A stretch of DNA of 64,000 nucleotides from Candidatus Thiovulum stygium (GCA_021582295.1 CP091137.1:148970-212969); one strand, 5' to 3'; numbered from the stretch's first letter, positions 1 through 63,879 are shown. The notes: generated by a model not told the origin, from the letters alone. Numbers and translations: made by a program.

Positions 1-1120
1 TTCGTCCATCACTATTTGCAACTATTGAATTTAACTCTCCAACTGTATCAAATAATGGAGCACCAGAAACAGCACTTTCACCAACTAACATTTCTACTGA
101 AAGATCTATTTTTGCAGTTTGAGCAGAAGGAACTGTAACAGGTATTTGTTCAGAATAACCTTTAAGTTTGCCCTCTTTATCTAAGAACATAGCCACTAAT
201 TTATAGTTTTCTTTAGCTTTTAGATTCTCAAGAACATATTCAGCTTCAGCTTTACCATCTTTATTAATAGAAGCAGTAACTGTATTAATATATAAATCGT
301 CAAATGTATATATATCTATAAGAACTGTTGAATCAGGATAAGCAGAAAGATTGAAATCTCTAATAGTTCCAGCAATGTTACCAATATTTGGATTATATTT
401 GATAATTGCAGAAGAAGATCTACTAATTCCAAGTTGATTTGCAACTTCAAAATAGACTTCATTTAAACCAATCTCAAGAGGTAAGAAAATGTCAAGTTTT
501 GTATCAGTTAAAGCTGTTTTTGCAAATTTAACTTGTTTGCCATTAACATAAGCAACTATTTCAGCACTACTTGTTAGCGATTTAAGATCAGCAGTTTGAC
601 CATTATCAGTTAATTTATCAAATGTTTCGATAGAAACTTTAGCTTTACCTGTTTCCATATCAACAGCATAATCAAGAACAGATGTTGTTGCAAGTCTAGT
701 TGGTTGCTCATTGCTATCTTTTAAAGAAATCGTAATTGTTCTATCGCTAGAAAAATTGTTGATTGTTTTAATAACAGGAATATAATTACTACCAGGAACT
801 TCAACTCTAATTATTCTATTTGAACCAGCTCCACCGATAACATTTTGGAATGTTGCAGATGAACCTTGAATTTTAGAAACAGATTCAGATTCAGCTAAGT
901 TTTGAGCAGTTTTGATTCCATCAACAGAGATAATTGCATTAGCAATTACAGCAGATTTGTTACCAGCATCTTCAACTTTTACAGTTAAGTTATAAACAGG
1001 TTTAGTTTTAATTTTAAGATCAAATCGTTTAATATCTTCTCTTTCAGAAGTATTAACCTCATCGATTTTATAGCTTGGAACATTAACAGATGGAGAATTG
1101 AAATAACCTAATTTACTAGC
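1..1120 (-). CDS. Partial CDS (3' part runs off the window): secreted repeat-type surface protein, last gene of the 1-9.8 kb surface-protein operon
   Basis: Absent from the ORF track because it has no ATG. My minus-strand translation is uninterrupted from about 1180 to position 1 (...SKLGYFNSPSVNVPSYKIDEVNTSE...VKVEDAGNKSAVIANAIISVDG...). The start is unresolved (TTG candidates at 1180 and 1168). The frame is +1 relative to the upstream 260-aa ORF. Confidence 0.5.
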
Positions 1121-1121
1121 T

Positions 1122-1904
1122 TCAATTCTTAATAGCGAAATATGTATTGTCGTTTTTATAAATACCAAAATCCATTTCAACTGGAGAGAATTCGCATAAA
1201 CCGACTCTGTCTGTAACATCATATTGAATAGCAGGAGTATAAACTGGTTTAGATGTAACAACACGATCAATTATTACATAATCTTTGAAAGTTTTGCCTG
1301 TTGCTTCTGAACGACCTTTAAGATCGATATAAGCTCTATCTCGCAATTGGAATTTTTGACCACTATCTGTAACTTTTAAATCAAGTGTAGGGATAATATC
1401 AAGTGAAAAACCATCATCAAACAATATCTCATTTTCGTATTTAGCTTTACCAGTTGCATTAACTTCAGTTAAAATTTTAGAAAGAGGCATTGCAAGTTTT
1501 TCTAAGAATTTATTTGAGCTAACAACTTGAGCAATTTTGTCAATATTAAGTTTTGTATTTGTAGATTTTTGAACAGAAATTAAACTTTCGATATTGTCAT
1601 TAGCAATATCAGTTTCAGAAGAATTTCCATCACCATTTGCTAAAACCCATTTATAACCATCGTTGCCATCTTTTGCAATAGCAACATTAACAGAATTACC
1701 ATCTTGTAACTCTATAGCTGAAACAACAACAAAACCCCAATCAACATAATTTAAAGTATAGTCTAATGGATTAAAAACTGTATCATATTTTGCTCGTAAA
1801 TAGCCTACATCTTTATTACCAATAACTCTCATTGATTCTAATATTTTGTCAATATCATTACTAAGAACATCTTCATTCCAATTTAATACATTCTCTTGCT
1901 CCAA
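1122..1904 (-). CDS. Hypothetical protein (260 aa) in the surface-protein operon
   Basis: ORF track. TTG start; overlaps the 3' end of the upstream 975-aa ORF by 32 nt. I recognise no motif. Confidence 0.55.
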   Translation of the reverse strand: MEQENVLNWNEDVLSNDIDKILESMRVIGNKDVGYLRAKYDTVFNPLDYTLNYVDWGFVVVSAIELQDGNSVNVAIAKDGNDGYKWVLANGDGNSSETDIANDNIESLISVQKSTNTKLNIDKIAQVVSSNKFLEKLAMPLSKILTEVNATGKAKYENEILFDDGFSLDIIPTLDLKVTDSGQKFQLRDRAYIDLKGRSEATGKTFKDYVIIDRVVTSKPVYTPAIQYDVTDRVGLCEFSPVEMDFGIYKNDNTYFAIKN

Positions 1905-4800
1905 TTGAAGTTATATTTAGCTCATCAAGTGATTTAAATAAGTCTTTTAAAGTGTTAAATTTGCCAAAGGTATGATAGTTGTTGTCATTAATTTTAGCCC
2001 AACTGTCATCGTTAAAATCATTTGTTTTAATTGCAAAACTATGTTCTTGACCATTTAATTCACCAACAACCTCTTTATACATTCCAGCAATATCTATCTT
2101 TGTAGCAATATAACCAATTGAAGGATATTTTCTATCTTCATTGATTGCATAATTTTTACCAAGATTATCTTTACTAGCTAAATCAGTTGCAACTTCGATA
2201 AAATCAGCTTGTTGATCGCCATTGATATCGTGTTCAACTTGAACTGCAATATCAAATTGACCACTCGCAGCAATTTTGACATCATCAAAATCAGAAGCTA
2301 ATGGCGATTTCATTGCTAGAGCAATAATTTGTTCATAAGCTAAAAAGTTTCCATTAGTAGCAAGTGAACCCTCTTTGATAAGAATCCATCTCTCTTCAGA
2401 AACTCTATTTAAAACTCTTGAAGGTTGTTTAGTTACAGTTGAAGGTTGTTTAGTTACAGTTGATGAATTTAGATCATCTTTATGTTTTTTGATAAACCAA
2501 CTATATTGTGCTCCAACAATTCCACCAACTTCGATACCAACTTTTTCAACATCATTAACAAGTCGTTTAACATCTTGATTAACAGTAGCAAGAGCAATTG
2601 GTGCAATTAGTTCTACATTTGCATTAGCAACAGCATAACTATTCTCATCTTTGACTTCACATTTGATTGTTGCATATTTTGGAGGAGCTAACATTTCTAA
2701 TGTAATATCAGTTGTTGATTTTCCATCTGAATCAGGAGTTTTAAGAGATGATAAATTCAAAGTTTTTGCAACAGGATAGTGATTTCCTTCAAGTGCAGAA
2801 ATTGTAAAATCTTCAATAGCACCTTGAGCTGATAAAAGTGTAAATGTAGCTATTCCGTTTGCATCAACATTTTTAATTAGTTCAACTCCACCATTTCCTC
2901 TAACGAGTTTAACAGCAGATTTAGTTAAATTTGTAGTTGATCCAGCTTCAAGAACTTTAATTTGAAGAGTATATTCGTTAGGTCTTAAATCTGGAGTTTC
3001 ATTTTTTGCTTGTTTATAATATGCAAACATTGGTTGAGGTCCAGTAAGAACACCATTGCTTGTTTTAATTAAAGCATTAAATTTCTTGCCACCATCTTTA
3101 AATACTGTTTTTTCTCCATTGCTAAGAGTAATACCAGTTGCATCTTTTGTAATTAATTCAAAATCTGCTCTTGGAACTCTACTCCAAACATTATTGTTAT
3201 AAACAAAAAGTTCAATACCATCGCTAATATTACCATCAGCTTTATCAACACCTTTTAATTTATCAAGAAGATCTTTAGTAGTTTTATTTGTGTCATCATC
3301 TGTTACTTCAGCTAACATATCAGCAGTTAAAGTAACTCCTAATAATCCAAGAATTTTATTAACATTTTCAGCATAATTTCCTGTATATGAAATAACATCA
3401 CTCCAAGATTGACCAAAGTTATATTCACTTTTAGCAGTTTTTGCAGAAACACTGATTTTACCAAGAGGAGAAATAGTATATCCAACCTCATCAAATTTAG
3501 TTTTGATACTAGAGTAATCAGGTAAAACCGACCAATCAGCACTTTTAACTTTAACAAAAGAACCATCAACAGCTACACCACCAAGAGGAAGATAAATTCC
3601 ACCTGCTGAACTTGTATAAGTTTTTTCAACTGTTGCTTCTGATAATCGAGATAGAACTCTTCCGCTTGTTTTGTCATCTGTTGAAAAATCACCATCAAGA
3701 GCAATTTCACCTGTTCCATCATCTTCACTTAAGAAAATATAATTAGCATTTCCATTACTAGAAATTGTTTGAACAGTAGAATCATATTTATTTTTAGAAA
3801 TATAAACTTTTTCAGATGTTGGCAAACTTGCTAAATATATAAATCCTGTTGAACTTGTTGAACCGATGAGGTCGCCAATTGAACCATTTGTTTCAACTTT
3901 ATAAACTTCAGCATCAGCAATAATCGATGGACTTCCACCTTCAGAAACTGAATAAACATAAAGAGAAGCTCCAGAAGTAGCTCTATTTTCTTTTATTTTT
4001 TTATCATCAAGTGTATTTGTTAAAATATTCTTTAAAGTATCAGCAAAATTAGATTTTGGATCAACTTGAGAAGATGAATATTTTTGACCATCAACAGTTT
4101 TTGAAATAATTACACTTGAAACTTTTGAGTAATCTAAAGATGTTGCCAATTCAGTAGCATTGTTCTCAGTAATTGATTTTTTTAATGCTGAAATATCTTG
4201 ACCTTCGCGATCAACATATAATTCAACATCTAATCCGTCAGCTGTTTGAACAGTCCCTGCTAATTTTTGGACTTTAACCCAGTAGCCTGAGTTAGAATTC
4301 ACACTTGTTAAAGAGTTTCTAGCTGAATTAATATTAAAAGTATTTGTAACATTTGTAATGACATCTATTTTTATGCCATCTATTTTTTGTTTTGAAGATA
4401 TATAAGATTTGATAGAATCAATAGAACCTATATTAGAGTTAAAAGATGTTAAATTCCAACCAGCTGATAATGAAACTTCATCATTGCTTAAAGGTGTTCC
4501 ATTTAAAGTAACATTCACATCGGCAGTTGCTTTAACCCAGTAACCTTTACCTACTGAAAGCTTTGTAAGAGAGTTTCTTGTAGCTCCCGCTGTATATGTA
4601 TTTGTTACATTTGTGATTTTTTGAATCTGTGGATAAGTTTTTACTAGAGTTGCAATATCCCATTCACCAGTTGATGACATGGATTTTTCTTGAACCCCAA
4701 CTAAATTCCAACCTGTTCGTATATTGACAGTTTGTGCTGTTGCAAGGTTTTGTAATAAAAGACCTGAAGCTACAGCTGATAATAAAAGTTTATTATTCAT
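1873..4800 (-). CDS. Large secreted protein (975 aa) with repeated GWNL...GYWVK modules
   Basis: N-terminal signal peptide MNNKLLLSAVASGLLLQNLATAQT. Repeated motifs GWNLVGV...GKGYWVKA and AGWNLTSF...NSGYWVKV. Long ORF with no antisense competitor. Confidence 0.75.
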   Translation of the reverse strand: MNNKLLLSAVASGLLLQNLATAQTVNIRTGWNLVGVQEKSMSSTGEWDIATLVKTYPQIQKITNVTNTYTAGATRNSLTKLSVGKGYWVKATADVNVTLNGTPLSNDEVSLSAGWNLTSFNSNIGSIDSIKSYISSKQKIDGIKIDVITNVTNTFNINSARNSLTSVNSNSGYWVKVQKLAGTVQTADGLDVELYVDREGQDISALKKSITENNATELATSLDYSKVSSVIISKTVDGQKYSSSQVDPKSNFADTLKNILTNTLDDKKIKENRATSGASLYVYSVSEGGSPSIIADAEVYKVETNGSIGDLIGSTSSTGFIYLASLPTSEKVYISKNKYDSTVQTISSNGNANYIFLSEDDGTGEIALDGDFSTDDKTSGRVLSRLSEATVEKTYTSSAGGIYLPLGGVAVDGSFVKVKSADWSVLPDYSSIKTKFDEVGYTISPLGKISVSAKTAKSEYNFGQSWSDVISYTGNYAENVNKILGLLGVTLTADMLAEVTDDDTNKTTKDLLDKLKGVDKADGNISDGIELFVYNNNVWSRVPRADFELITKDATGITLSNGEKTVFKDGGKKFNALIKTSNGVLTGPQPMFAYYKQAKNETPDLRPNEYTLQIKVLEAGSTTNLTKSAVKLVRGNGGVELIKNVDANGIATFTLLSAQGAIEDFTISALEGNHYPVAKTLNLSSLKTPDSDGKSTTDITLEMLAPPKYATIKCEVKDENSYAVANANVELIAPIALATVNQDVKRLVNDVEKVGIEVGGIVGAQYSWFIKKHKDDLNSSTVTKQPSTVTKQPSRVLNRVSEERWILIKEGSLATNGNFLAYEQIIALAMKSPLASDFDDVKIAASGQFDIAVQVEHDINGDQQADFIEVATDLASKDNLGKNYAINEDRKYPSIGYIATKIDIAGMYKEVVGELNGQEHSFAIKTNDFNDDSWAKINDNNYHTFGKFNTLKDLFKSLDELNITSIGARECIKLE
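2420..2461 (-). repeat. Perfect 21-bp tandem duplication inside the 975-aa ORF (STVTKQP x2)
   Basis: gaaggttgtttagttacagtt occurs twice in direct succession on the + strand. Confidence 0.9.
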
Positions 4801-4881
4801 AAATATCCTTGAAATAATAAAAAGAACGAATTTATAATCTAGTGCAAAATAAATGCACCAGATTAACTAAAAATTAAAAAG

Positions 4882-5121: not shown

Positions 5122-5129
5122 TGTTCCAG

Positions 5130-9791: not shown

Positions 9792-9819
9792 AAAACACCT
9801 TATATAAAATTTATAAAAA

Positions 9820-10266: not shown

Positions 10267-10272
10267 TATATT

Positions 10273-12207: not shown

Positions 12208-12289
12208 ATAACAAAAAACTTATAATCTATAAATTTTATTATACTATAATTTAAAATTTAAACACCTCATCATTATTATTAGGATATCT

Positions 12290-12852: not shown

Positions 12853-13644
12853 TTGCAAAAAGACAAACAAATAGAGATAAGTAAAAAAATTTTACGACAA
12901 GTTGGAAAAACAAATTTTAATTTCAATTTAATAAATAATGGTGATAAAATAGTTCTTGGTTTGAGTGGAGGCAAAGATTCGTTAATGTTAGCACATATTT
13001 TAAAACGAACTCAAAGACATGCTCCGTTCAAATTTGAATTTTTGGCTGTTACAGTTGATTATGGAATGGGCGAAAATTTTGATGATTTAATTGCTCATAC
13101 AAAATATTATGATATACCTCATCAAATTTATAAAACAGAAATATTCGATATTGCTACTGAAAAAATTCGAGAAAATAGTTCATATTGTAGTTTTTTTTCG
13201 CGAATGCGACGAGGTGCTTTATACAGTGCAACTACAAAATTTGGTTTTAACAAATTGGCTCTTGGTCATCATCTCGATGATGCCGTTGAAAGCTTTTTTA
13301 TGAATATGTTTTATAACAGCACAATGAGAGGTTTTCCACCAAAATATAAATCTGGAAATGGCATTGAAGTTATTCGTCCGCTTATACAAATTCGCGAAAG
13401 ACAACTAAGCGATGGAGCTTTAAAAAATAATTTTCCATTAATTGGTGATAATGCTTGTCCATCAATGAAATTTAAAATTAAAATGCCTCATGTTCGAGCT
13501 GATATGAAAACAATGTTAGCTGATTTAGAATATAAATTTCCTAATATGTTTCAATCAATTAATCGTGCTTTTTCAAATTTTCATTTTGATTCATTTTTCT
13601 TAAATAATTCAAATGAGATTATAGAAGATAACTTCGAAGAATAG
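12853..13644 (+). CDS. ttcA: PP-loop ATPase, TtcA-like tRNA thiolation enzyme
   Basis: SGGKDS PP-loop motif in LGLSGGKDSLMLAHIL. 263 aa, TTG start. Confidence 0.75.
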   Translation: MQKDKQIEISKKILRQVGKTNFNFNLINNGDKIVLGLSGGKDSLMLAHILKRTQRHAPFKFEFLAVTVDYGMGENFDDLIAHTKYYDIPHQIYKTEIFDIATEKIRENSSYCSFFSRMRRGALYSATTKFGFNKLALGHHLDDAVESFFMNMFYNSTMRGFPPKYKSGNGIEVIRPLIQIRERQLSDGALKNNFPLIGDNACPSMKFKIKMPHVRADMKTMLADLEYKFPNMFQSINRAFSNFHFDSFFLNNSNEIIEDNFEE

Positions 13645-14945
13645 TTTTTATTAAACAAAGCTATAAATATAGATATCATCAAATATATTATTAAAAATGT
13701 ATTTGATGTATTAAATTTATAATGTTCCCAAAAATTCATAGATAAAAAATATAATAAAATCTGATCAAATATCTCTCCAATATTTAAAATATGAATTAAA
13801 ATCATAATTGGATATATAAATGAAAATAAAATATTCCAAATTGGTGATAGTAGTTGTATTAAATAAAAATCTTCAAAATATAGATGAACTATTGGTAACA
13901 TTGCAAAAAATACAAAAAAATTTAATAAAATTACATCTAAAATTAGTCCAAATTTAAATAATTTCATATAAAGCAATATATAAAAAATTCCAGAAACTGA
14001 AAACCAAAAGCTCATTGAAAAAAAGAGTGTTGGATCAAAAGCCAACATAATTAAAACTCCAATTAAAAGAGTCTCAAAATTATTTTTATTTATATTTCTA
14101 TCAAAAAGTATAAAAGTAATTATAAACATAAAGACTGATCTTAAAAAAGGTGGTGGCGAATCTAAAAACAGGTTATAAATTATAATGATAATTATTCCAA
14201 AAAATATACTATCTCTTATTTTATTTCGATATGGAAAAAATCTTTTATGGAATGGAGAATAAAATATTAAAAAAATAATTATTGAAAATAATATAATTAA
14301 AGATACATGAAAACCGCTAAGAGTAGCAACTGGATTTAACCCTAAACGATTTAAATCTTCTCGTAATTCTCCTCTAATTGGAGTTGCAAAAAATAGAGCC
14401 GAATATAAATCAGCTATTTTTTCATTTTTATGAATATCTTTCAAGTCTAAATATAGTTTAAATCTTGAATCTCGATTACATTCGTTGAGTTCAATTTTTG
14501 AAATTATTAAAAATGGTTCATTTAAAAAATCTAAGAATTTTAAATTTTCGTTAATATTTATTGATAAATTTGTTTTCATGCCAAGTAAATTTTTATATTT
14601 ATATCTCGAAGATGAATAAAATAATAAGCTGTTTTTTGTAGATTTAAATTTGAAAATTGTAAAAGGTTCTTTTGTATATTGGTCAATTACTATAAATTCT
14701 CCATCATAAGTTGAAAAATGAGAGAATTCTAAATATTCAATATATTTTTTTGACATTGAAAATATAAATATAAAGAGTAAAATTATTAAGAAATATAGCT
14801 GTTCTTTAAAAGATCTAAATAGTGATAATGAAAATTTATAATTTAAAGTGCGATGATTTTGAGATTGTGATAAAGATAATAAAAAATCTTTAGTTTGCTT
14901 CCACTCGATTTCTGCCACCTCTTTTTGCACGATAAAGAGCTTCAT
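13581..14945 (-). CDS. comEC: ComEC/Rec2-family DNA uptake channel protein
   Basis: Polytopic membrane protein. The core LSGFHVSLIILF...FLRSVFMFIITFILF resembles the ComEC competence domain. The start is uncertain (an internal Met is possible). Its 3' end overlaps the convergent ttcA-like gene by 64 nt. Confidence 0.65.
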   Translation of the reverse strand: MKLFIVQKEVAEIEWKQTKDFLLSLSQSQNHRTLNYKFSLSLFRSFKEQLYFLIILLFIFIFSMSKKYIEYLEFSHFSTYDGEFIVIDQYTKEPFTIFKFKSTKNSLLFYSSSRYKYKNLLGMKTNLSININENLKFLDFLNEPFLIISKIELNECNRDSRFKLYLDLKDIHKNEKIADLYSALFFATPIRGELREDLNRLGLNPVATLSGFHVSLIILFSIIIFLIFYSPFHKRFFPYRNKIRDSIFFGIIIIIIYNLFLDSPPPFLRSVFMFIITFILFDRNINKNNFETLLIGVLIMLAFDPTLFFSMSFWFSVSGIFYILLYMKLFKFGLILDVILLNFFVFFAMLPIVHLYFEDFYLIQLLSPIWNILFSFIYPIMILIHILNIGEIFDQILLYFLSMNFWEHYKFNTSNTFLIIYLMISIFIALFNKNYSSKLSSIISFELFKKNESK

Positions 14946-39168: not shown

Positions 39169-39429
39169 TTTATTTTTAAGTGGCATTTGATGAGGTGTCT
39201 ATCAAGTATATTTATATAATATGGTTTTAATGTTGAAATGCTAAATTTATATTTTATAGATCAAAAAATTAAAAAATCCCGACCATGAGCATCTTTGAGT
39301 ATTTTTAAATTTATAGAGTATATATTTTTATTGAATATAAAATTTTTTCAGAGCTAATTTATTGTATGTTTTAAGCTAAAAATTAATTTTGACTGCTACA
39401 ATTCTCAAAATTTAACAAAAAGGAAAGAG

Positions 39430-47745: not shown

Positions 47746-48306
47746 ATGAAACATAAACTTACGATTTTTGATCGTTTTTTTCATGCTTTTCGAGAAATAG
47801 CTTTATATCATCACGATTCGCTTGAATTTCGGGCTAAAATTTATGCCGTAATGGTTGTTGCAAATAGCGATTATGGTGAAGAACGAAATAATAAAAAGCG
47901 AAACGATAATCACGATATTTGCGAATTTGACAAACTCGAAATAATTAGCGAAGAGATTTATCCAAAAGATATTCGTCGTCAAAATGCACTTTTATTAACG
48001 ATTCGTGAATATGTTAATAAAATTAGAGAACCAAATGGTTTAGGTCTTGATGAGCTAATTTTTAATATCGAGAAAAAGTTAAAACGAAAACCTAGATTTG
48101 TTGAAAAAATAAATATAGAACATCTTAAAAATTTGGCTAAATGTCCAACTGATGAAGAATCAGATATTTATCAAAAAAGAATAATCTCATTTTTAGAAAG
48201 ATTAAAAAGTAGTTATTCAAATGATAAAAATAAACAAGTGGTTGATCAGAAAAGCGAAATTCACAATGAAGATATTGATCTCGATGAGGTTGTAAAAAAT
48301 ATATAG
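47746..48306 (+). CDS. Hypothetical protein (186 aa)
   Basis: ORF track only. Confidence 0.5.
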   Translation: MKHKLTIFDRFFHAFREIALYHHDSLEFRAKIYAVMVVANSDYGEERNNKKRNDNHDICEFDKLEIISEEIYPKDIRRQNALLLTIREYVNKIREPNGLGLDELIFNIEKKLKRKPRFVEKINIEHLKNLAKCPTDEESDIYQKRIISFLERLKSSYSNDKNKQVVDQKSEIHNEDIDLDEVVKNI

Positions 48307-50970: not shown

Positions 50971-50988
50971 AAATTAGTTTTAATATAT

Positions 50989-53900: not shown

Positions 53901-54623
53901 AAAAACGAAATGAGATTTTGAATAATTGCACCTCATCAGATGAACGAGAACGAACTGAAAAGATTATTAAAGCCAATTTTAAGAGGTAGGGATATTAAAA
54001 GATATGGGTATGAGTGGGCAGGGCTTTGGATAATAGTTGTTAAATTTGGTTTTAATGCTGAGCTTGATAAATATCCAGCAATTTTAGAACATTTAACACA
54101 ATACAAAGAGCAATTAAAAAATCGTGGTCAATGCAGATATTCTCGTGGAGGAATTGGGCAAGGACAACATCATTGGCTTGAACTTGACAATAATCCAAAG
54201 GATTTTTACTTGGATGAGTTTGAAAAAGAGAAGATTGTTTTTAAAGCAATAGGTAAAAATTTAGCTTTTTCAATTGTTAAATCAGGAATTTTTGTTTCAG
54301 CTCCGTCATCGTTTCTAACTTCGCAAAAAAACAAATATATTCTAGGCATACTATCTAGTAAAGTTGTTCAAAGTTATATTTACGATAATTCTGATAGAAC
54401 TGGAGCTGGAGATGTTATGTTAAATATTCAATCTTTTGAAAAAATTCCACTCCCAAAAATATCACAAGAAGAGCAAGAACCATTTGTAAAACTTGTTGAT
54501 GAGATAATGGAGCTAAAAGCGAAAAATGAAGATACAAAAGAATTTGAGAATCAAATCGATGAAATGGTTTATAAACTTTATGGTTTGAGTGAGGATGAGG
54601 TAAAGATTATAAACGGCAAATAA
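50989..54623 (+). pseudogene. Type IIG restriction-modification enzyme (~1200 aa if intact) broken into four collinear frames
   Basis: N-terminal DLAIY...VIIEAKLP nuclease motif, IPYMNSSL(F), VLDPAVGSGHIL (motif I), IIENNLFGVDIN after repair, IIANPPYIRQE (motif IV), a TaqI-like C-terminal part and ...LYGLSEDEVKIINGK. Frame breaks at A8 52102-52109 (-1), A7 52658-52664 (-1) and around 53940-53989 (+1). Confidence 0.8.
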
Positions 54624-55139
54624 GAGAGTTTAAAGCTTTAACCATAAAATTTATCAGGTTTTTGATTAAAGTGTCTAAATTTGGCTAGAAATGTATGTAA
54701 TCGAGCTGTTTGAATCAAATGTTTAAAGCTTTAAGAACAGATTTTAAATTTTGAAAATTTAATTAACGAAGCTATTGATGAGGTAAAGATTATAAACGGC
54801 AAATAAGAGAGTTTAAAGCTTTAACCATAAAAATTATCAGGTTTTTGATTAAAGTGTCTAAATTTGGCTAGAAATGTATGTAATCGAGCTGTTTGAATCA
54901 AATGTTTAAAGCTTTAAGAACAAATTTTAAATTTTGAAAATTTAATTAACGAAGCTATTGATGAGGTAAAGATAATAAACGGCAAATAAGAGAGTTTAAA
55001 GCTTTAACCATAAAATTTATCAGGTTTTTGATTAAAGTGTCTAAATTTGGCTAGAAATGTATGTAATCGAGCTGTTTGAATCAAATGTTTAAAGCTTTAA
55101 GAACAAATTTTAAATTTTCAAAATTTAATTAACGAAGCT
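54594..55139 (+). repeat. Three tandem copies of a 183-bp unit that begins with the last 30 nt of the RM gene
   Basis: gatgaggtaaagat(t/a)ataaacggcaaataagagagtttaaagctttaacc... recurs at 54594, 54777 and 54960. Confidence 0.9.
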
Positions 55140-55154
55140 TATGAAAACGAAAAT
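55114..55154 (+). repeat. Left copy of a 41-bp direct repeat flanking the 245-aa ORF cassette
   Basis: attttcaaaatttaattaacgaagcttatgaaaacgaaaat. The right copy at 55958-55998 differs at one base. Confidence 0.85.
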
Positions 55155-55195
55155 CATCTATAATTTTAAAAATCTAATTTTTCGAGGAATTTATA

Positions 55196-55933
55196 TTGAG
55201 TTTATATGAACTATTAGAAAACTTAACTCTTGAAGATATTGAAAAACTTCGCGAACTGAAATTAAAAGAGATTCAGCAATTACCAACTTTCTCATTTTCT
55301 AAAATTAGGTTTTCAGATTTAAAGCGATTTTTTAAAATAGAGCAGAATATCAATATTTCGAATTGTTTTGAGAATTGGTTTAATTCTGATATTGAAATCC
55401 AAGAAAATATATCTAAGTTTTTAGAAAACTTGATTTTAAAGAACAGAGGTTTAATTCAGAATTATAATGAAGAGGATTTGAAAATACATTTTTTATCGCC
55501 TCTTTTCTATCAAATAGATTTTAAATCTTTCGAGAAAAAGTATCGCGATTTTTATAATGAGAAGATTCGTTATGAAAACGATAAGCTGGTTTTAAGCGGA
55601 GAGGTTGATTTTGTTTTGGCAAAAGGTCTTTACGAGAGCGAAACACCATATTTTTTTATTCAGGAGTTTAAAAAAGGTGTTGAGTTTTCAGATCCTCGTC
55701 CGCAACTTGTTGCCGAATTGATTGCAGGTTTGGAAATTTCTAATTTTAAAAATATCAAAGGTGCTTATATTATTGGTTCTATTTGGAATTTCGTATTTTT
55801 AGAAAAAATTGAAAAAGATAGTTATCGATATTATGTTTCTGAAAATTTCGATAGTTCAAAAATAGGAGATTTGAATCTTATTTATAAAAATTTGCTATTT
55901 GTAAAAAAAGAGATCGAAGAATTATTAAAATAA
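55196..55933 (+). CDS. PD-(D/E)xK nuclease-like protein (type I R-subunit N-terminal domain-like)
   Basis: GEVDFVLAKG ... FFIQEFKKG fits the D...ExK motif and spacing. TTG start; 245 aa. Confidence 0.5.
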   Translation: MSLYELLENLTLEDIEKLRELKLKEIQQLPTFSFSKIRFSDLKRFFKIEQNINISNCFENWFNSDIEIQENISKFLENLILKNRGLIQNYNEEDLKIHFLSPLFYQIDFKSFEKKYRDFYNEKIRYENDKLVLSGEVDFVLAKGLYESETPYFFIQEFKKGVEFSDPRPQLVAELIAGLEISNFKNIKGAYIIGSIWNFVFLEKIEKDSYRYYVSENFDSSKIGDLNLIYKNLLFVKKEIEELLK

Positions 55934-55957
55934 CCTCATCGCTATAATTGATTTATA

Positions 55958-56009: not shown

Positions 56010-58574
56010 TTGGAACGAACAATTAAAAGTTTAGAGATAAAAATCGAAACACTTTTAGAAAAACGAGACTCTTTTAAAATAGCAAAAGAGATTGAACTTT
56101 TCATCAAAGAATATAAAAGTTCTTTAAAACAGAGTTTTTTAGATCGACCAGATAAAGGTAGAAATTTTTTAATAAAACATTCAAAGTTTTATGACTCTGT
56201 TATTACACTTTTATATAAAAGTGTTTTAAGATTAATGTTCGGAAATTATATGCCACTTAGAGATTCAATTCCGATTGTTATTGTTGCTCTTGGAAGTTAT
56301 GGTCGCGAAGAATTAACAGTTCATAGTGATATCGATTTAATGATCACTTATCGTAAAATAGATGGATATAATATCGAAAAAATTATAGAGCGGTTTTTAT
56401 TAATGGTTTGGGATTCTGGTTTAAAATTGGGTCATAGAACTCACGATATCAGTGAAATAGAAGCTGTTGCAAAAACTGATTCAACTATTAAAACTGCAAT
56501 TTTAGAATCTCGGAAAATTATGGGTTCTACTTTTGTTTGGAATGCTTTATTAGATCAATTAAAAGCTGTTCGCCAATTTGATCAATATGGCTTTATTCGT
56601 CAAAAAGAGGTTGAACGAGATAAACGATATCGAACTCATTCAATGGGCGAAATGGAACCTGATCTTAAAGATGGTTTTGGCGGTTTGCGAGATTGGAATA
56701 TTTTATATTGGGTTGCAAATGTTATATACGGTGTTGATAATATTCGCGAACTTTCTGGTAAATTATTTTCAGAATCTGAATTGAGAAAATTTTCATCAGC
56801 TCTCGATTTTGTTTTTGCAACTCGAACAGCGTTGCATTTATCGACTAAAAAGAAGCGGGATCGAGTTACTCTTGACGATGTTCCATATTTGAGTGAAACT
56901 CTCGGAATAGAACAACATTCACAATTTTCTCAAAAGTTATCTTCGGCAATGTGGAATATTCATGCTTTTGCATCAAAAGTTACTCGAAAAATTGCAAAAT
57001 CAATTATATTTAAAAATGATATTAATCAATTTATAAATATAAAAGAGTCTCGAATTGCTCGAGGACTTTATGTCGTGAATAACGAATTATTAATAGCTAG
57101 TGAAATTAAGTTTAAAAATTATGAAGAATTTATAGCTTTTTTACATCAGATTCCTGATCAAAATTTAAAAATTAGTGAATCTATTTATGCTCTGCTTGAT
57201 TCTATTGAAACAGAAAATGAAAATATTATAAGTTCAGATAGAAAAAATATCTTAAAACTTTTTGAACGACAATATTTATATCCAGTTTTAGAAATTTTAT
57301 TAAAAGTGGCATTAATTGATAAATTATTACCTCTTTTTGAAAAAGTTTTACATTTGCCACAATTTGATGGTTATCATAAACATCCTGTTGATGTTCATTC
57401 GATCTATAATATTCGTGAAATAGAAAATATTCAAGATAAAAAAATAGCAGATTTATATAATAGTTTGGCTGATTCTGAAAGACGAATTTTAAAAATTGCT
57501 TCACTTTTTCATGATATTGGTAAAGGTCGAACCGAAGATCATAGCAAGGTTGGTGCAAGAATTACAAAGCAATTTTTAAAAGATTTTGGAGAAGAAAACG
57601 ATGAGGTAATTGAGAGAGTTGGAAACCTAATAAGACATCACACAGTTATGACAGAAACAGCATATAATGATGACATATTTGATGAACGAGTAATTTTTAG
57701 TTTTACTTCAAGATTAAAAGAGCGACGAGATTTAAATTTATTATATATTTTGACTTATGGAGATGTTCGAAGTGTAAATGAGAAAACTTTTAATTCTCAT
57801 AGTGGAAGACTTTTAAGCACACTTTATCAAAATGCCTTATATTCTTTTGAACATAGAGAAATGTTAAAAGAGTCTGAACGAAAAGAAAAACGAGTTCGTC
57901 AGCTAATTAATAGCGAAATTTATAAAATTCAACCTAAAAATATTCAAAAAGCTGTTCTTGATATCAAATCTAATTTTGCTTTTTTACAACTTTCTAATGA
58001 AGAACTTATAGAAATCGTTCAGATTACAAAATCGCTTTCTGGTTATTGGTTCAAATTTGAGAACAACGAATATTTAACTTTACGAGTTATTCGAGATAAA
58101 AGTTTGAATTTCGATATTGCATATTTATTAAATCGTTTGAATCTTTTATCTGTTGCTTCACTTGAGCTTTTTGAACTTTTCGATGGAGCTAAATATTTTA
58201 AAATAGAATTTACTAGTTCAATTGCAAAAGATGATGAAATAATGCTTGATGAGGTAATTAAATTATCGTTTGTAAATAATAATGACACTCGAAAAAAATT
58301 CAAAAAATTATTAGCTAAAATATATCGTGAAGAACTTACAATTGATTGCGATTATTCTAATAGTCATGTTCGAATGCGGTTGCAAACTGCAAATCAAAAT
58401 GGTCTTTTAGCCTATTTATTTAAATTTTTTGAAGATGAAAAAATAGATGTCGTTTCGACTAAAACTCAAACTTTCAAAAAAAGTGTTAAAGATACATTTT
58501 TATTTAATCGAGATAATAGCGGTTGCGATAAATATGAAAGATTAATAGGTTTAATAACTGGAGATATAAAATAA
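56010..58574 (+). CDS. glnD: [Protein-PII] uridylyltransferase/uridylyl-removing enzyme-like protein
   Basis: Nucleotidyltransferase motif GSYGREELTVHSDIDLMI, HD domain HKHPVD...FHDIGKG and a C-terminal ACT-like region. 854 aa, TTG start. Confidence 0.8.
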   Translation: MERTIKSLEIKIETLLEKRDSFKIAKEIELFIKEYKSSLKQSFLDRPDKGRNFLIKHSKFYDSVITLLYKSVLRLMFGNYMPLRDSIPIVIVALGSYGREELTVHSDIDLMITYRKIDGYNIEKIIERFLLMVWDSGLKLGHRTHDISEIEAVAKTDSTIKTAILESRKIMGSTFVWNALLDQLKAVRQFDQYGFIRQKEVERDKRYRTHSMGEMEPDLKDGFGGLRDWNILYWVANVIYGVDNIRELSGKLFSESELRKFSSALDFVFATRTALHLSTKKKRDRVTLDDVPYLSETLGIEQHSQFSQKLSSAMWNIHAFASKVTRKIAKSIIFKNDINQFINIKESRIARGLYVVNNELLIASEIKFKNYEEFIAFLHQIPDQNLKISESIYALLDSIETENENIISSDRKNILKLFERQYLYPVLEILLKVALIDKLLPLFEKVLHLPQFDGYHKHPVDVHSIYNIREIENIQDKKIADLYNSLADSERRILKIASLFHDIGKGRTEDHSKVGARITKQFLKDFGEENDEVIERVGNLIRHHTVMTETAYNDDIFDERVIFSFTSRLKERRDLNLLYILTYGDVRSVNEKTFNSHSGRLLSTLYQNALYSFEHREMLKESERKEKRVRQLINSEIYKIQPKNIQKAVLDIKSNFAFLQLSNEELIEIVQITKSLSGYWFKFENNEYLTLRVIRDKSLNFDIAYLLNRLNLLSVASLELFELFDGAKYFKIEFTSSIAKDDEIMLDEVIKLSFVNNNDTRKKFKKLLAKIYREELTIDCDYSNSHVRMRLQTANQNGLLAYLFKFFEDEKIDVVSTKTQTFKKSVKDTFLFNRDNSGCDKYERLIGLITGDIK

Positions 58575-59342
58575 ATGAGAATCGTAATAACTGGAGCTAG
58601 TAGTGGCATTGGTCATGAATTGGCAAAAATATATAAAGCTCGAGGAGATAAACTTTTTTTAGTTGCTCGACGAATTGAATTACTTGGCAAATTTTTAAGC
58701 GAAAATATCTTTGGAGCTGATTTATCGGAACTTGATGAAGCAATTCGCACGGGGGAAGCAATTGCAAAATGGAATCCAGATTTAATTATTATAAATGCTG
58801 GTATATCATTAGGGCATTCGCGAGATAAATTAACAAATTTAAATGATTTCGAAAAATTATTTATAACTAATTTTTCGTCAATTCATCCAACTTTATATCC
58901 AACACTATTAAAATGGATTAATCATTCTAATAATAATTTGCATTCTGGTTCTGATACAGAAAAAATTGATAAAAAAATAGTTTTTATATCGTCATTAGCT
59001 TCATTAATCACATTGCCATCATCAATTGCTTATAGCACTTCAAAACGAGCAATGAATAGTTACGCTGAAGGTTTGCGATTTTTCTTAAAACCTTATGGAG
59101 TAAAAATTACAACGATTCTTCCAGGATTTATAGAAACTCCACTAACTCATAAAAATAAATTTAATATGCCTTTTATTTTACCTCTTGAAAAAGGTGTTGA
59201 ACAAATTTATGATGCAATTGAAGATAATAAAGTTTTTTATCCATTTCCTTATATTTTTTATATATTAATAAAAATATTAAATTTATTGCCAAATTTTTTA
59301 AGAGATTGGTTTATATCAAAAAGTGGTGTTGGAGTTAAATAA
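58575..59342 (+). CDS. Short-chain dehydrogenase/reductase family oxidoreductase
   Basis: ITGASSGIG cofactor motif and YSTSK catalytic motif. Confidence 0.85.
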   Translation: MRIVITGASSGIGHELAKIYKARGDKLFLVARRIELLGKFLSENIFGADLSELDEAIRTGEAIAKWNPDLIIINAGISLGHSRDKLTNLNDFEKLFITNFSSIHPTLYPTLLKWINHSNNNLHSGSDTEKIDKKIVFISSLASLITLPSSIAYSTSKRAMNSYAEGLRFFLKPYGVKITTILPGFIETPLTHKNKFNMPFILPLEKGVEQIYDAIEDNKVFYPFPYIFYILIKILNLLPNFLRDWFISKSGVGVK

Positions 59343-59866
59343 TGTATATTATAAATAAGAGCAATAAGTATAAAAAGGCTTTTACTCTTATTGAAACATT
59401 GATGGCGGTTGTAATTATTTCTATTGTTGGTTATGCACTTTTGCAAACTCACTCAAATGTTATTCATTCATTAACACTTTTTGCAGATAGAATGAAAGTT
59501 AATGAATATAGTTCTATTCTTTTTTCGAAAATATCTAAAGATTTTCATAATAAAAAAAGAGATTTATATGAATATGCTAAAGAAATATATTCTATTAATG
59601 ATGATGATCTAATAAAATTTTTAAAAAAAGAGGAGTTTTTATATAAGCAAGAAGAATTATATTTTATGCGACTTGGCGAAAGTGAAGATGGAAACGGTTT
59701 AAATGAAGATTTAATGGCAGAATTTGAACGACGAGATGAAAATGGTGAAATTATAAAAAGTGTTGAAGGAGCAGGAATTTCGATAGAACAGATAACTCTA
59801 TCAAATGATAATAATCTTTCAACTTTTATTTATCATTTTACTTATGAAATAAATGAATCAAAATAG
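59342..59866 (+). CDS. Prepilin-type N-terminal cleavage/methylation domain protein (pseudopilin, T2SS/competence type)
   Basis: KKAFTLIETLMAVVIISIVGYALL is the canonical class III signal (FTLIE). Confidence 0.7.
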   Translation: MYIINKSNKYKKAFTLIETLMAVVIISIVGYALLQTHSNVIHSLTLFADRMKVNEYSSILFSKISKDFHNKKRDLYEYAKEIYSINDDDLIKFLKKEEFLYKQEELYFMRLGESEDGNGLNEDLMAEFERRDENGEIIKSVEGAGISIEQITLSNDNNLSTFIYHFTYEINESK

Positions 59867-59970: not shown

Positions 59971-61659
59971 ATGATGAAATCTCTTTGGTCTGGAGTTTCA
60001 GGACTTCAGGCTCATCAAGTTGCAATGGATGTCGAAGGCAATAACATTGCCAATGTTAATACAGTAGGTTTTAAATATTCTCGAGCAAATTTTGCTGATA
60101 TGTTAGCTCAAACTTCAAAAATAGCTTCAGCACCAGAAGGTGGACTTGGCGGAACAAATGCCGTTCAAGTTGGTCTCGGTTCAACAGCTTCAACTGTTTC
60201 AAAAATATTTTCTCAAGGTTCGCTAGAAAAAACTGATAAAAGTACAGATGTGGCACTTTCTGGAGATGGTTTTTTTACTGTTAGTTCAGATGGTGGTAGA
60301 AGTTATAAATTTACTAGATCAGGCGACTTTAAATTTGATGCAAATGGCATGTTTGTTGATGGTAATGGTTATATGGTTCAAGGTTGGAATTATGATTCAG
60401 CACTTGGTCGAGTTAATACAGCTTCAATTGTTGGAGATATAAAAATAGATTCTTCTTTAACAATGCCTGCAAAATCAACCTCATCAATAAAAGTAAAAGC
60501 AAATTTAAATTCTGGTGATACTAATGAAATTACAACTCCAACTTATGCTTTAACTGCAACTGGAGCTTTTGCAACAACAAATGGCGATGAAAAAGCTGAA
60601 GATTTAGCTCAATTATTTAATGAAAATGGGGAAAAATTAGGCTTAAAAACTGGCGATAGTTTTTCGATTTCTGTTAATGGTGCAACTGCTACTGAATTAG
60701 TTTATGGCAAAGATTTTACAACAACAGCACAATTACGAACAGTTCTTGCAAATAGAACAGGAGCTCAAGTAACTTTAAATGAATTCGGCAAATTCGAAGT
60801 TAAAAATTTAGGCACAAATCCATTGTCGATTACTATAAAAGATGGAAAACAAAATAACGAACTTTTTACAAATATGCTTATGCCTTTAAATACAAAATCG
60901 CTTCAACAAAATAGTTCAAGTTATTCTCAAGGTGTTTCAGCAGCAACTCATGGAACAAGTATCGATATTCTTGATTCTTTAGGTTCAAAACATACTGTAA
61001 AATTTGATTTTAGAAAAGCTGAAGGCAATAAATGGAATATGGTCGTATCTGTTCCAAGTCCTGCTTCTATCGAAGGAACAGCTCCAAAAACAAATGTAAT
61101 TCTTGGTGGAAATGTAACTTTTAATAGTGATGGTTCTCTTGCTAGTGTAAATCCTTCGACTATTAAATTTACTGGAAATAATGGCTCTTCAGCTAATCAA
61201 ATTGTTCAACTTGATATGGGAACAATTGGTGGCTTCGGAGGTATAACATCTTTTGATCAAGAGACAAAAACAGCGGGAATTTCTCAAGATGGTTTTGGTT
61301 CAGGTGATCTCGTTAATGTTCTTGTTGATCAATCTGGAACTGTTTCTGGAACTTTCTCAAATGGAAAATCTATCGGTTTGGCAAAATTGGCAATCGCAAG
61401 ATTTACAAATAATGAAGGTTTAATGAACGAAGGAGGAAATATTTATACTCAATCAGCAAACTCTGGTTCTGCAATGATTGGTGAAGCTGGTGCTGGTGGT
61501 CGAGGAGCAGTTCAAGCTTCATATCTTGAAATGAGTAATGTCGATTTAAGTCGAAGTCTTACAAAATTAATAGTTATTCAAAGAGGGTATCAATCTAATT
61601 CAAAAACTATTACTACAGCTGATCAAATGTTAAATACACTTTTACAACTTAAAAATTAA
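59971..61659 (+). CDS. flgE: Flagellar hook protein FlgE
   Basis: N-terminal MMKSLWSGVSGLQAHQVAMDVEGNNIANVNTVGFK and C-terminal LEMSNVDLSRSLTKLIVIQRGYQSNSKTITTADQML. Confidence 0.95.
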   Translation: MMKSLWSGVSGLQAHQVAMDVEGNNIANVNTVGFKYSRANFADMLAQTSKIASAPEGGLGGTNAVQVGLGSTASTVSKIFSQGSLEKTDKSTDVALSGDGFFTVSSDGGRSYKFTRSGDFKFDANGMFVDGNGYMVQGWNYDSALGRVNTASIVGDIKIDSSLTMPAKSTSSIKVKANLNSGDTNEITTPTYALTATGAFATTNGDEKAEDLAQLFNENGEKLGLKTGDSFSISVNGATATELVYGKDFTTTAQLRTVLANRTGAQVTLNEFGKFEVKNLGTNPLSITIKDGKQNNELFTNMLMPLNTKSLQQNSSSYSQGVSAATHGTSIDILDSLGSKHTVKFDFRKAEGNKWNMVVSVPSPASIEGTAPKTNVILGGNVTFNSDGSLASVNPSTIKFTGNNGSSANQIVQLDMGTIGGFGGITSFDQETKTAGISQDGFGSGDLVNVLVDQSGTVSGTFSNGKSIGLAKLAIARFTNNEGLMNEGGNIYTQSANSGSAMIGEAGAGGRGAVQASYLEMSNVDLSRSLTKLIVIQRGYQSNSKTITTADQMLNTLLQLKN

Positions 61660-62188: not shown

Positions 62189-62223
62189 CTAGTAACTAGT
62201 AATTAAAAAGGAAATTTAAAATA

Positions 62224-62850
62224 TTGAATAATATATTATTAACAAGAGCTAATTTTTATAGCTTTTTATCAAGACTATTGTTATTTGAACTCGATTTAAA
62301 AACTTTAAAAGAGCTCCGAGAAAATAAAAATATATTTGAACTTTTTCCAAATTTGCAAACTTGGGATTCTTGGCAAAATTTGTCAGATAATGAACTTTTA
62401 AATTCTCATATAAATCCTGATTTTACAAATATATCTATACTTCATCTTGTTCCATATGAGAGTTTTTATACTCGTGAAGATGCAATGATTGAAAGTGGTG
62501 GAGCAAATCTCGTAACAAATTTTTATCACGAATTTGGTTTTAAAGTTGAATTCAATGAAGCTAGAGTTGTTGCACCAGATCATATTGGAATTGAATTAGC
62601 TTTTATGAGTTTATTAATTAATGGCGAAAACAATGCATTAATTAATAATGATATTAAAACAGCTGAAAAAATCTTAAATACTCAAAAGCAATTTATGGAA
62701 ACTCATCTCATAAATTGGATTTCGCTTTATCTAATTAATTTTAAATTTGAGGCTCGAACACCACTCTATTATGATTTAGGCGAAACAGCTCTCGCATTTA
62801 TTTTTGAAGATTATAATTATATAAATATAATTATAGATGGCAAAAATTGA
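62224..62850 (+). CDS. TorD/DmsD-family redox-enzyme maturation chaperone
   Basis: APDHIGIELAFMSLL is a typical TorD-family motif (E/PDH...EL.FM). 208 aa. Confidence 0.65.
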   Translation: MNNILLTRANFYSFLSRLLLFELDLKTLKELRENKNIFELFPNLQTWDSWQNLSDNELLNSHINPDFTNISILHLVPYESFYTREDAMIESGGANLVTNFYHEFGFKVEFNEARVVAPDHIGIELAFMSLLINGENNALINNDIKTAEKILNTQKQFMETHLINWISLYLINFKFEARTPLYYDLGETALAFIFEDYNYINIIIDGKN

Positions 62851-63879
62851 AATTGAATCGCATTTATGCACAGTTTCGTTGTCGAAATTATCAAGTTGTA
62901 ATAATTGTATAACTAGTTGCCCAACAGAAGCTATATTTAAACTTGAAAATGGTTTAATAAATATTTCTGAACGAAATTGTGTTGAATGCGGAGTATGTTC
63001 AGCATTTTGTCCAACAGAAGCTATAAAATTAATAAAATTCTCACCAATTGATAAAATATTTGAATTAATTAAAAGTCAAAATATAGTTCTTGATTGCAAA
63101 AATGGAGGAATTCCATGTTTAGCATCTTTTTCAATTGAATATTTAGTTTCTTTGATAATTTTAAAAAAAGTGATATTTTTGCAAATTACAGCTATTGTTC
63201 TAGTTGTTATATTTTTCCGAAAGTTGGAAAATATATATCTTTAATTATTGATGAGGTCAATTTTTTATTACAAGCTTTGAATTTACCTCATCAAATTAAA
63301 TTAATTAACCAAAATATAAATCATATTGAAGAAAAAAATAGTTTTGATAAATCGAGACGATTTTTTGATGGCAATATTTTTGATATTAAAAGTGGTGAAG
63401 TTCGTGAATTAAATTATAAATCAATGCGAAATAAAAATATTCCAGCTCATCGAAAGCTTTTTTTAATGGCTATTAAAAAATTAGAAGTTTCTAAGCATAT
63501 TTTATTATCCAATGATATTTCTACTTTTTCTCAAAAAGCTATCGATTCAAGTTGTATTGGTTGTCAATTATGTTGGAGAATATGCCCCAGTGGAGCTTTA
63601 TTTAGTAATAATATTGGTAGTTTTATAGATTTTGATAGCGGTTTATGTTTAAAATGTGGTTTATGTCATGATGTTTGTGAAAATAAATCTATTTATATAA
63701 AAGATGAATTTAGTATTCTAAAACTCTTTGAGAATCGCACTGATAGATTAATTAGTTTAAATATGTCTCGATGTGATGAATGTAGTTCTCTATTTGTAAA
63801 AAAAGCTGACAATCTAAATAATTTATGTAATAGATGTGAAATTGAAGAAAATGAGGCTTTAAGTTTGTGGAACTTATAA
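62837..63879 (+). pseudogene. 4Fe-4S dicluster ferredoxin-domain protein split by a -1 frameshift in an A7 run
   Basis: CNNCITSCP/CVECGVCSAFCP in the first ORF and CIGCQLCWRICP/CLKCGLCHDVCE in the second. The frame of the second ORF is open back to about 63170. Adding one A to A7 63163-63169 joins them (...IILKKSDIFANYSYCSSCY...LNLPHQIK...). Confidence 0.65.
63250..63292. repeat. Inverted pair of the over-represented octamer (TTGATGAGGT ... ACCTCATCAA)
   Basis: 10-bp perfect inverted repeat arms at 63248-63257 and 63285-63294, with a 27-nt spacer. Confidence 0.85.

Follow-up and report, generated by a model that had tools for sequence, protein, structure and literature searches.

An enriched asymmetric octamer with alternating orientations in Thiovulum, a candidate DNA-uptake-type genomic word

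Results

The octamer in a 64-kb stretch of cave Thiovulum DNA

The window, the whole stretch of DNA analyzed here, covers 64 kb of the genome of a cave Thiovulum (Candidatus Thiovulum stygium, Campylobacterota), and the element under study is the octamer GATGAGGT (reverse complement ACCTCATC), a non-palindromic word that recurs along it. The genomes nearest to the window by FtsH are those of Candidatus Thiovulum karukerense (79% identity) and Ca. T. imperiosus (77%), and the flgE of the window is of the Campylobacterota type by NCBIfam and Pfam annotation; the assignment to this phylum in an earlier note on the same DNA is therefore borne out, the nearest named relatives being Candidatus Thiovulum species. 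An exact string search found 29 copies of the octamer, 15 on the plus and 14 on the minus strand, whereas 100 dinucleotide-preserving shuffles of the window gave 0.75 on average and at most 3, and an order-3 Markov model predicts 1.33. By over-representation it ranks first among all 8-mers of the window. The earlier note had counted at least 29 exact copies and judged them tens-fold enriched; the 29 copies were recovered where it had placed them, with one shifted by a base (31096, not 31095), and the enrichment survives the Markov correction that had been set beforehand as a check. We regard the over-representation of GATGAGGT as a genomic word as confirmed.

The boundaries of the word are sharp: T follows GATGAGG in 29 of 31 occurrences, and G precedes ATGAGGT in 29 of 32. 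Position −1 is a pyrimidine in 27 of the 29 copies, as had been claimed, and position −2 is T in 20. Beyond these two positions no base is conserved within 20 nt on either side of the 29 copies, which are thus not part of a longer repeat. Three copies do lie in a 183-bp tandem repeat at 54594-55139 (3.0 copies, 98% matches), which leaves 27 independent copies, the number reached in the earlier note. The window has further top-ranking k-mers: AGATGTTAGTAAAG, which is a 12-bp tandem repeat, and TAAAGCTTTA, most of whose copies fall inside the 183-bp repeat. An Rfam scan of the window detected only a group II intron fragment, unrelated to GATGAGGT.

On a mechanical map of open reading frames (ORFs) of at least 80 amino acids, nine copies are sense, 11 antisense and nine outside ORFs. 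All nine sense copies are read as GAT GAG GTn and encode D-E-V; frame +1 would create a TGA stop. They lie in ORF 1873-4800 (3485..3492, −), an RNase T/RNase H gene (21849..21856, +), ORF 25728-26687 (26083..26090, −), an MmeI-like Type IIG restriction-modification (R-M) gene (39829..39836, +), a HAD hydrolase gene (44369..44376, +), near the end of ORF 47746-48306 (48283..48290, +), at the end of a TaqI_C ORF (54594..54601, +, beginning at the first base of tandem repeat unit 1), and twice in glnD (57600..57607 and 58248..58255, both +). The antisense copies write L-I (five), P-H (three) and T-S-S (three). They give D-L-I in ORF 1873-4800 (3865..3872, +), ORF 25728-26687 (26487..26494, +) and the MmeI-like gene (41351..41358, −), and N-L-I in nadA (35943..35950, +) and the homoserine dehydrogenase gene (46267..46274, −). 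P-H-Q is written in a PP-loop ATPase gene (13116..13123, −) and a signal peptidase gene (20110..20117, −), and T-S-S in a CitMHS transporter gene (32852..32859, −), an Eco57I-type methylase ORF (53930..53937, −) and flgE (60478..60485, −). These are the gene orientations and frames (DEV, LI, TSS and PH) described in the earlier note.

Among the remaining copies, one is found outside ORFs just downstream of ORF 1122-1904 (1056..1063, −), one is intergenic upstream of a SprT-like gene (12264..12271, −), one is outside ORFs at 31096..31103 (+) and one is intergenic at 39189..39196 (+). Another intergenic copy (36037..36044, −) is the inverted partner of that at 35943, 94 bp apart. Tandem repeat units 2 and 3 carry copies at 54777..54784 and 54960..54967 (both +) that are not independent, and the copy at 55933..55940 (−) abuts the stop codon of ORF 55196-55933. 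The intergenic copy at 63250..63257 (+) and that at 63285..63292 (−) are the left and right arms of a hairpin-forming inverted pair (folding free energy, dG, −16.3; z −5.05). The longest copy-free gap, from 3865 to 12264, includes the gene of a 1553-residue PKD-repeat protein (5130-9791), which has near-identical internal repeats and zero copies of GATGAGGT.

Distribution across Thiovulum and other Campylobacterota

Comparison loci were fetched around homologues of FtsH, homoserine dehydrogenase and ComEC. The Thiovulum-like sample totals about 250 kb in 12 loci, the independence of the lineages being approximate, and the pooled set comprises 11 non-redundant loci (236 kb), the window and 10 others; an outgroup of 47 loci (790 kb) represents Sulfurimonas, Nautiliaceae and other Campylobacterota. 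Of the 10 other pooled loci, seven have the word as their top or second-ranked 8-mer, at 0.3-0.9 copies per kb. With order-3 Markov expectations in each case, it ranks first in L054, a marine relative of Thiovulum sp. ES from a JGI metagenome (17 copies in 21 kb, 0.77 expected), in L057 from Ca. T. imperiosus (17 in 21 kb, 0.87 expected), and in the metagenomic lineages L060 (11 in 17.9 kb, 0.42 expected), L061 (20 in 21 kb, 0.90 expected) and L062 (14 in 15 kb, 0.79 expected). It ranks second in L053 from Thiovulum sp. ES (12 in 14.4 kb, 0.39 expected) and in the metagenomic lineage L063 (13 in 21 kb, 0.54 expected), and fifth in L051 from GCA_030152305 (12 in 21 kb, 0.37 expected); in L052, a second contig of GCA_030152305 with the same homoserine dehydrogenase protein, it again ranks first. 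Density is lower at L002, L047, L064 and L306 (0.26-0.43 copies per kb), and at the Thiovulum-like loci without rank 1 or 2 the word is still above chance.

The outgroup yielded 29 copies against 30 expected, which is chance level, and L065, whose homologue is 66% identical and which falls outside the clade, has zero copies. Every Thiovulum lineage examined has the word at roughly one copy per 1-2 kb on both strands, a pattern shown by no neighboring genus. The search in related genomes proposed in the earlier note strengthens the case, with rank 1 or 2 at most loci of the Thiovulum type and no more copies than chance predicts in the other Campylobacterota. The Thiovulum lineages share 62-68% average amino acid identity (AAI) and 74-78% average nucleotide identity (ANI) (PMC9938260). 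Thiovulum genomes measure 1.72-2.20 Mb with a GC content of 28-37%, one of them, from Movile Cave, being closed (PMC9938260), and extrapolation would give about 800 copies in a 1.72-Mb genome.

Together the 11 pooled loci contain 142 sites (0.60 per kb), 69 on the plus and 73 on the minus strand. The strands are balanced at each locus, the majority strand accounting for 76 of the 142 sites; on the replichore polarity raised in the earlier note, this speaks locally, as an absence of strand bias at all 11 loci. Flanks vary among lineages at positions −1 to −3 and +1, which gives dialects: YGATGAGGT in the cave lineage, CGATGAGGTC in the ES-like marine lineages and G[G/T]YGATGAGGT in imperiosus. 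Flank identity averages 0.29, the random level, and grouping of the sites by flank similarity gave 126 clusters, only six of which span more than one locus. A dispersed repeat of the repetitive extragenic palindrome (REP) or miniature inverted-repeat transposable element (MITE) type was rejected, since flank identity is random and ORFs contain the majority of copies (69% of those in the window, 89% of those at the pooled loci). The single dispersed repeat family against which the earlier note had cautioned is likewise not seen, the copies having no common flanks.

Individual sites are both retained and replaced. In the homoserine dehydrogenase gene two sites are at the same position in six or seven lineages; the window copy at 46267 is shared with six other Thiovulum lineages, and at one of the two conserved sites the window has a one-mismatch variant, GATGAAGT. 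In the stretch syntenic with L051 only three of nine site positions are common, the copies at 44369 and 57600 being in the same position in both, so sites are gained and lost. Around ftsH no synteny with the marine species is conserved. In L306 (JGI 3300079446, 1-15411), whose ComEC is 46% identical to that of the window, there are four copies of GATGAGGT in 15.4 kb, and the top 8-mer is TTGAGGCG, with five copies on both strands and the TGAGG core in common with GATGAGGT. As an alternative word of this locus, whether divergent dialect or noise, it was set aside as too weak at five copies.

Pressure at the DNA level and its effect on proteins

Synonymous codons were shuffled inside each ORF, which keeps every protein and the codon usage of each gene. 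The window ORFs have 20 copies; after shuffling they had 3.05 on average and never more than 10. GAG makes up 15% of the Glu codons of the window, yet nine of its 14 DEV tripeptides are spelled GATGAGGT, and DEV is 3.6-fold over expectation. Both results uphold the proposal of the earlier note that selection acts on the DNA word rather than on a peptide. In the pooled Thiovulum loci DEV is 4.15-fold over expectation with 77% of DEV spelled by the word, compared with 1.40-fold and 24% in the outgroups, which are richer in GAG codons yet lack enrichment of GATGAGGT. TSS, LI and PH are written by the reverse complement in Thiovulum only. The word has reshaped the Thiovulum proteome, the same kind of effect as the coevolution of proteomes with uptake words known for the uptake signal sequence (USS) of Pasteurellaceae and the DNA uptake sequence (DUS) of Neisseriaceae (PMC2817400).

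The pooled sites divide into 60 sense (59 of them in the DEV frame), 66 antisense and 16 intergenic. Given the near equality of sense and antisense copies, a signal at the level of transcription or translation was rejected. An intergenic enrichment was also discarded: it is about threefold in the window and gone in the pooled loci (0.60 per kb coding vs 0.59 per kb intergenic).

Spacing, inverted pairs and alternating orientation

Site spacing in the pooled loci has a mean of 1.56 kb and a median of 1.14 kb; the mean is close to that reported for Neisseria DUS, 1.15-1.5 kb (PMC2397512). With the tandem repeat left out, all 13 unique neighbor pairs less than 200 bp apart are inverted. Each of the six inverted pairs that were folded forms a hairpin, four with stems that reach past the octamer (9-13 bp), and z-scores are −3.3 to −6.2 in four of the six. 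One inverted pair lies between convergent genes (L057, 2920/2935), and several are inside genes.

Orientation also alternates at longer range. Successive neighbors are in opposite orientation in 94 of 131 pairs (p=7e-7), and after removal of orthologous duplicates and the tandem repeat in 88 pairs vs 35 in the same orientation (p=2e-6). The pattern holds for pairs more than 200 bp apart (75 opposite vs 35 same, p=1.7e-4), for pairs within one ORF (33 vs 3) and for isolated Thiovulum copies (58 vs 24). Among 751 control 6-7-mers of like abundance the opposite fraction is 0.46 ± 0.064, and values near 0.70 were reached only by sub-words of the motif and by near-palindromes. Gaps between sites of the same orientation are over-dispersed, with a coefficient of variation (CV) of 0.76 vs 1.00 and 13% of gaps below 1 kb vs 29% expected; the gaps of all sites together are Poisson-like (CV 0.98). 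A bias in where the copies sit within genes was rejected as the cause of alternation, the mean relative positions of the two orientations being 0.57 vs 0.50 (p=0.26). The comparator for orientation was Neisseria DUS only, in 120 Neisseria-type metagenome loci (732 kb non-redundant, 1006 DUS copies) picked for containing a close inverted pair. There, 273 pairs beyond 200 bp are opposite vs 257 same, and isolated copies divide 82 vs 88. Alternation is therefore not generic to uptake sequences. Alternation and the repulsion between copies of the same orientation suggest a strand-specific or one-sided action of the word.

Candidate uptake machinery and mobile DNA

The window encodes a ComEC-type DNA channel (13581..14945, −; Pfam PF03772, E=5.7e-19, above cut-off) and a prepilin-type (pseudo)pilin (59342..59866, +), whose N terminus KKAFTLIETL matches the prepilin N-methylation models PF07963 and TIGR02532; both genes had been named in the earlier note and both annotations stand. 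The start of the pilin, KKAFTLIE, may resemble that of the Cts-type pseudopilin of C. jejuni, and the pilin-like ORF gave no sequence match to solved pilins. Some ten lineages, all probably Thiovulum-like, encode full-length ComEC homologues (~390-430 amino acids, 41-60% identity, PF03772 in each), and every Thiovulum strain compared is reported to have type IV pilus genes (PMC9938260). ComEC and the prepilin-type protein may constitute competence machinery tied to the word. In L001, a contig of a near-identical strain (ENA ERZ2268041), about 2.2 kb of extra DNA (4500-6718) separates the nadB-proximal ORF from comEC; it matches the junction at ~14960-14981 of the window and holds a PAS-GGDEF gene and two copies of the word. 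There comEC was called as a 188-amino acid fragment, possibly through assembly frameshift errors.

Phage-like blocks (KilA-N, Bro-N, T5orf172, AntA) in three loci have 0 sites in 7.5 kb, and the toxin-antitoxin, R-M and island segments of the window have eight sites in 11.8 kb, three of them within the tandem repeat; pooled, the phage-like blocks and the window toxin-antitoxin and R-M segments have 0.41 sites per kb vs 0.54 per kb elsewhere. The island is a segment of ~7.7 kb (48307-55933) between ORF 47746-48306 and glnD that is absent from the syntenic L051, where glnD directly follows a 191-amino acid ORF. Its first 5.6 kb are copy-free and have the lowest GC of the window; GC in the island is 0.23-0.24. 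It contains a 589-amino acid ORF with a 12-bp tandem repeat of the AGATGTTAGTAA type (50766-50878), a DUF7149/DUF7814 gene, Eco57I-type methylase and TaqI_C specificity ORFs that resemble a fragmented Type IIG system (50989-54623), and the three-unit 183-bp tandem repeat, each unit of which begins with GATGAGGT.

A gene for an Lcl_C-domain protein recurs near homoserine dehydrogenase in four lineages (window 36526-42261; L051 2673-6933; L060 5794-9738; L063 7532-9889), in the window fused to a protein kinase domain. The neighboring cargo consists of a MazF/RHH toxin-antitoxin and the MmeI-like Type IIG gene in the window, and of KilA-N, Bro-N, T5orf172 and AntA genes elsewhere; the locus may be a hotspot for mobile DNA. 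In a scan of IMG/VR for inverted pairs of GATGAGGT, nearly all matches were of the kind expected by chance and one contig, L071 (IMGVR_UViG_3300044993_000120, 1-11639), stood out. It has a siphovirus-like module (major head protein, protease, tape measure, Dit), a GC content of 31% and five copies of the word, including an inverted pair (3032/3057) right after the major head gene. It has no similarity to the fetched Thiovulum loci, and it may be a Thiovulum phage or prophage with the word of its host. Finally, a HAMP-PAS ORF (29376-30779) and a GGDEF ORF (31156-31692) resemble a split diguanylate cyclase gene (29376-31692), with a group II intron domain match (RF00029, 53.6 bits, 30766-30850, −) between them; the region may be the remnant of an intron insertion.

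Discussion

We think it fairly probable, judging from the sequence evidence, that GATGAGGT is a DUS/USS-like self-recognition word for natural transformation that has spread by molecular drive. The features to be explained are an exact asymmetric word, 20-40-fold enrichment, strand symmetry, occurrence in all tolerated frames, recoding of the proteome, clade-wide presence with dialects, inverted hairpin pairs and conserved DNA-uptake genes. To our knowledge such a combination is otherwise documented in two cases, the Neisseriaceae DUS and the Pasteurellaceae USS, which is why we rank this explanation first. The likeness to these two systems had been pointed out in the earlier note. The data support a DUS-like genomic word. 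That Thiovulum is competent, that it takes up DNA with the word preferentially, that the word spreads by drive, that it is recognized on one strand and that it works as uptake sequences do in Neisseria and Haemophilus are inferences. The word would bias natural transformation toward conspecific DNA: fragments that bear it would be preferentially bound and taken up by a type IV pilus or pseudopilus and ComEC or, alternatively, would preferentially survive later processing, and would thereafter take the place of the homologous stretch of recipient DNA. The word would accumulate by molecular drive wherever coding constraint allows, and would also be retained as inverted pairs able to form hairpins. 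Because the orientations alternate and copies of the same orientation avoid each other within about 1 kb, recognition may be strand-specific or one-sided, such that a fragment would need one copy per orientation.

Several observations weigh against an uptake function. The variants of GATGAGGT with one mismatch number 153 against 165 expected, and this lack of excess counts because a balance of mutation and drive would be expected to leave one. No T-run follows any of the six folded hairpins, and the R-M genes of the window themselves contain sites. Alternation is seen in Thiovulum but not in the sampled Neisseria DUS, and published work on H. influenzae uptake reports no orientation effect (PMC1939737). 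Thiovulum is uncultured, a role of the word in uptake is predicted from sequence, and the sample amounts to about 250 kb rather than whole genomes.

The orientation pattern also admits a more specific proposal, which we hold only tentatively: that the word is a third, independently evolved self-DNA word, the first in Campylobacterota, acting, in contrast to DUS and USS, in a strand-specific or polar way. The reading might take place on the single strand entering the cell, or in a Chi-like step that processes incoming DNA, and drive would then favor one copy per orientation per fragment and so lead to the alternating arrangement. A polar action is likewise at the center of an explanation that we consider unlikely, in which the word would be a Chi-like regulatory word for a helicase-nuclease of the AddAB/RecBCD type, or another polar repair or processing signal, read on one strand by an enzyme that moves in a single direction, and alternation would give each two-ended break or incoming linear fragment a correctly oriented site on both sides. 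An 8-mer is of typical Chi size, alternation and same-orientation repulsion (gap CV 0.76 vs 1.0) are what a polar element would select, and the phage-like contig of 31% GC has the word as well. Every characterized Chi known to us (E. coli, B. subtilis, L. lactis) is, however, strongly co-oriented with replication, whereas the 11 Thiovulum loci are balanced; with every locus strand-balanced, classical polarity of the Chi or FtsK-orienting polar sequence (KOPS) kind was rejected. The enrichment of 19-40-fold is also well above the few-fold enrichment of E. coli Chi, and close inverted pairs and clade-specific dialects are traits of uptake sequences. Improbable, in our estimate, is a binding site of an abundant chromosomal protein acting in nucleoid organization, looping or segregation in a large, possibly polyploid cell, with a dimer bridging inverted sites. 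The two orientations are regularly interleaved with over-dispersed same-orientation spacing, and the word is exact and sharply bounded, its variants not enriched, all of which would speak for such a site. Sites of nucleoid proteins are usually degenerate, however; spacing of all sites is Poisson-like (CV 0.98) rather than regular, we know of no precedent for an asymmetric 8-mer architectural site at 0.6 per kb mainly in genes, and such a site offers no drive mechanism for extensive protein recoding.

That the word is, or contains, the target of a DNA methyltransferase or R-M system of Type IIG or Type III, kinds that modify one strand and sense site orientation, enriched as a by-product or serving in methylated form as a transformation tag, seems more doubtful still. 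The window does encode the MmeI-like Type IIG enzyme (39430-42261) and the fragmented Eco57I-type system; such enzymes read asymmetric words of 6-8 bp exactly, Type III and Type ISP enzymes are typically sensitive to site orientation, and C. jejuni discriminates transforming DNA via methylation of RAATTY. Restriction targets are normally avoided in the host, whereas GATGAGGT is over-represented by 20-40-fold, the opposite of the usual pattern. R-M systems are also strain-variable, the second system of the window lying in the island absent from L051, whereas the word is constant over lineages as far apart as the AAI and ANI values given above (PMC9938260). We give next to no credence to an artefact, be it of codon usage, of a frequent peptide, of tandem or dispersed repeats, or of chance. 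Three of the 29 window copies do come from one tandem repeat and every sense window copy encodes D-E-V. Against this, the shuffle and Markov controls exclude chance, the synonymous-codon shuffles peak at 10 copies where 20 are observed, antisense copies, in three frames, account for half of those in genes, flanks are unrelated with six of 126 flank clusters spanning more than one locus, and outgroups with more GAG codons are without the word.

Among known systems, the DUS of Neisseriaceae (GCCGTCTGAA and dialects, with the minor pilin ComP as receptor) resembles the Thiovulum word in being short and non-palindromic, at about one per kb on both strands without bias and with a mean spacing of ~1.5 kb in both; in being clade-specific, with flanking-base dialects and close inverted hairpin pairs; and in lying inside genes with peptide recoding, in hosts with type IV pilus genes and ComEC. 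It differs in its unrelated sequence, its phylum and its core of 10-12 nt, compared with 8-10 nt in Thiovulum. Copies less than 200 bp from another make up ~27% in Thiovulum vs ~66% in the Neisseria loci, which were chosen for a close inverted pair, and it is in Thiovulum, and not in Neisseria, that isolated copies alternate; the lack of enrichment of one-mismatch variants in Thiovulum is a further difference. The USS of Pasteurellaceae (AAGTGCGGT / ACAAGCGGT), with a 9-mer core, shares with the Thiovulum word an AT-rich genome, a location mostly in genes and equally common orientations. Mismatched USS copies are common, whereas one-mismatch variants in Thiovulum are at background. USS has AT-rich flanking segments that aid uptake, whereas the Thiovulum word is without conserved flanks beyond −1 to −3 and +1. 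The USS has also shaped the proteome (PMC2817400) and is family-wide with two dialects (PMC1626085), and its orientations favor opposite gene ends (PMC2346458), a position bias not found in Thiovulum.

Within the same phylum, C. jejuni, the one member studied in this respect, discriminates self DNA by methylation (CtsM, RAATTY), according to a 2025 review. Like Thiovulum, it has a short ComEC. The purpose, self-DNA preference, would be the same, but in C. jejuni the tag consists of an epigenetic mark, placed on a 6-mer that is very common without being enriched in the genome, whereas in Thiovulum a rare 8-mer is itself enriched 20-40-fold. Chi (e.g., GCTGGTGG) is likewise an over-represented 8-mer in genes, and the orientation pattern in Thiovulum suggests polar action; the Thiovulum word differs in having no replication-linked skew at any locus, stronger enrichment and common inverted pairs. 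HIP1 of cyanobacteria (GCGATCGC) is an exact octamer, highly iterated in and outside genes and clade-wide, with its function unproven; it is a palindrome tied to cognate methyltransferases, whereas GATGAGGT is asymmetric and patterned in orientation.

Sequence-specific DNA uptake is documented in two families only, Neisseriaceae and Pasteurellaceae (2025 review). In the literature searched we found no report of GATGAGGT or of any uptake sequence in Thiovulum or Campylobacterota, in line with a remark in the earlier note, and the comparative-genomics paper on Thiovulum mentions neither competence nor an uptake sequence (PMC9938260). If functional, the word would add a third family to the independently arisen uptake sequences, one whose orientation grammar is unusual, and would be the first such word in Campylobacterota and in an uncultured environmental giant bacterium. 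This would show that "safe-sex" tags evolve repeatedly, also outside host-associated pathogens, here in a free-living, veil-forming sulfur oxidizer, and would imply that natural transformation is active in Thiovulum populations. The word would be a simple sequence marker with which Thiovulum DNA could be binned and foreign DNA recognized in Thiovulum genomes, and its alternation offers a concrete way into the long-standing question of which step in transformation reads an uptake sequence.

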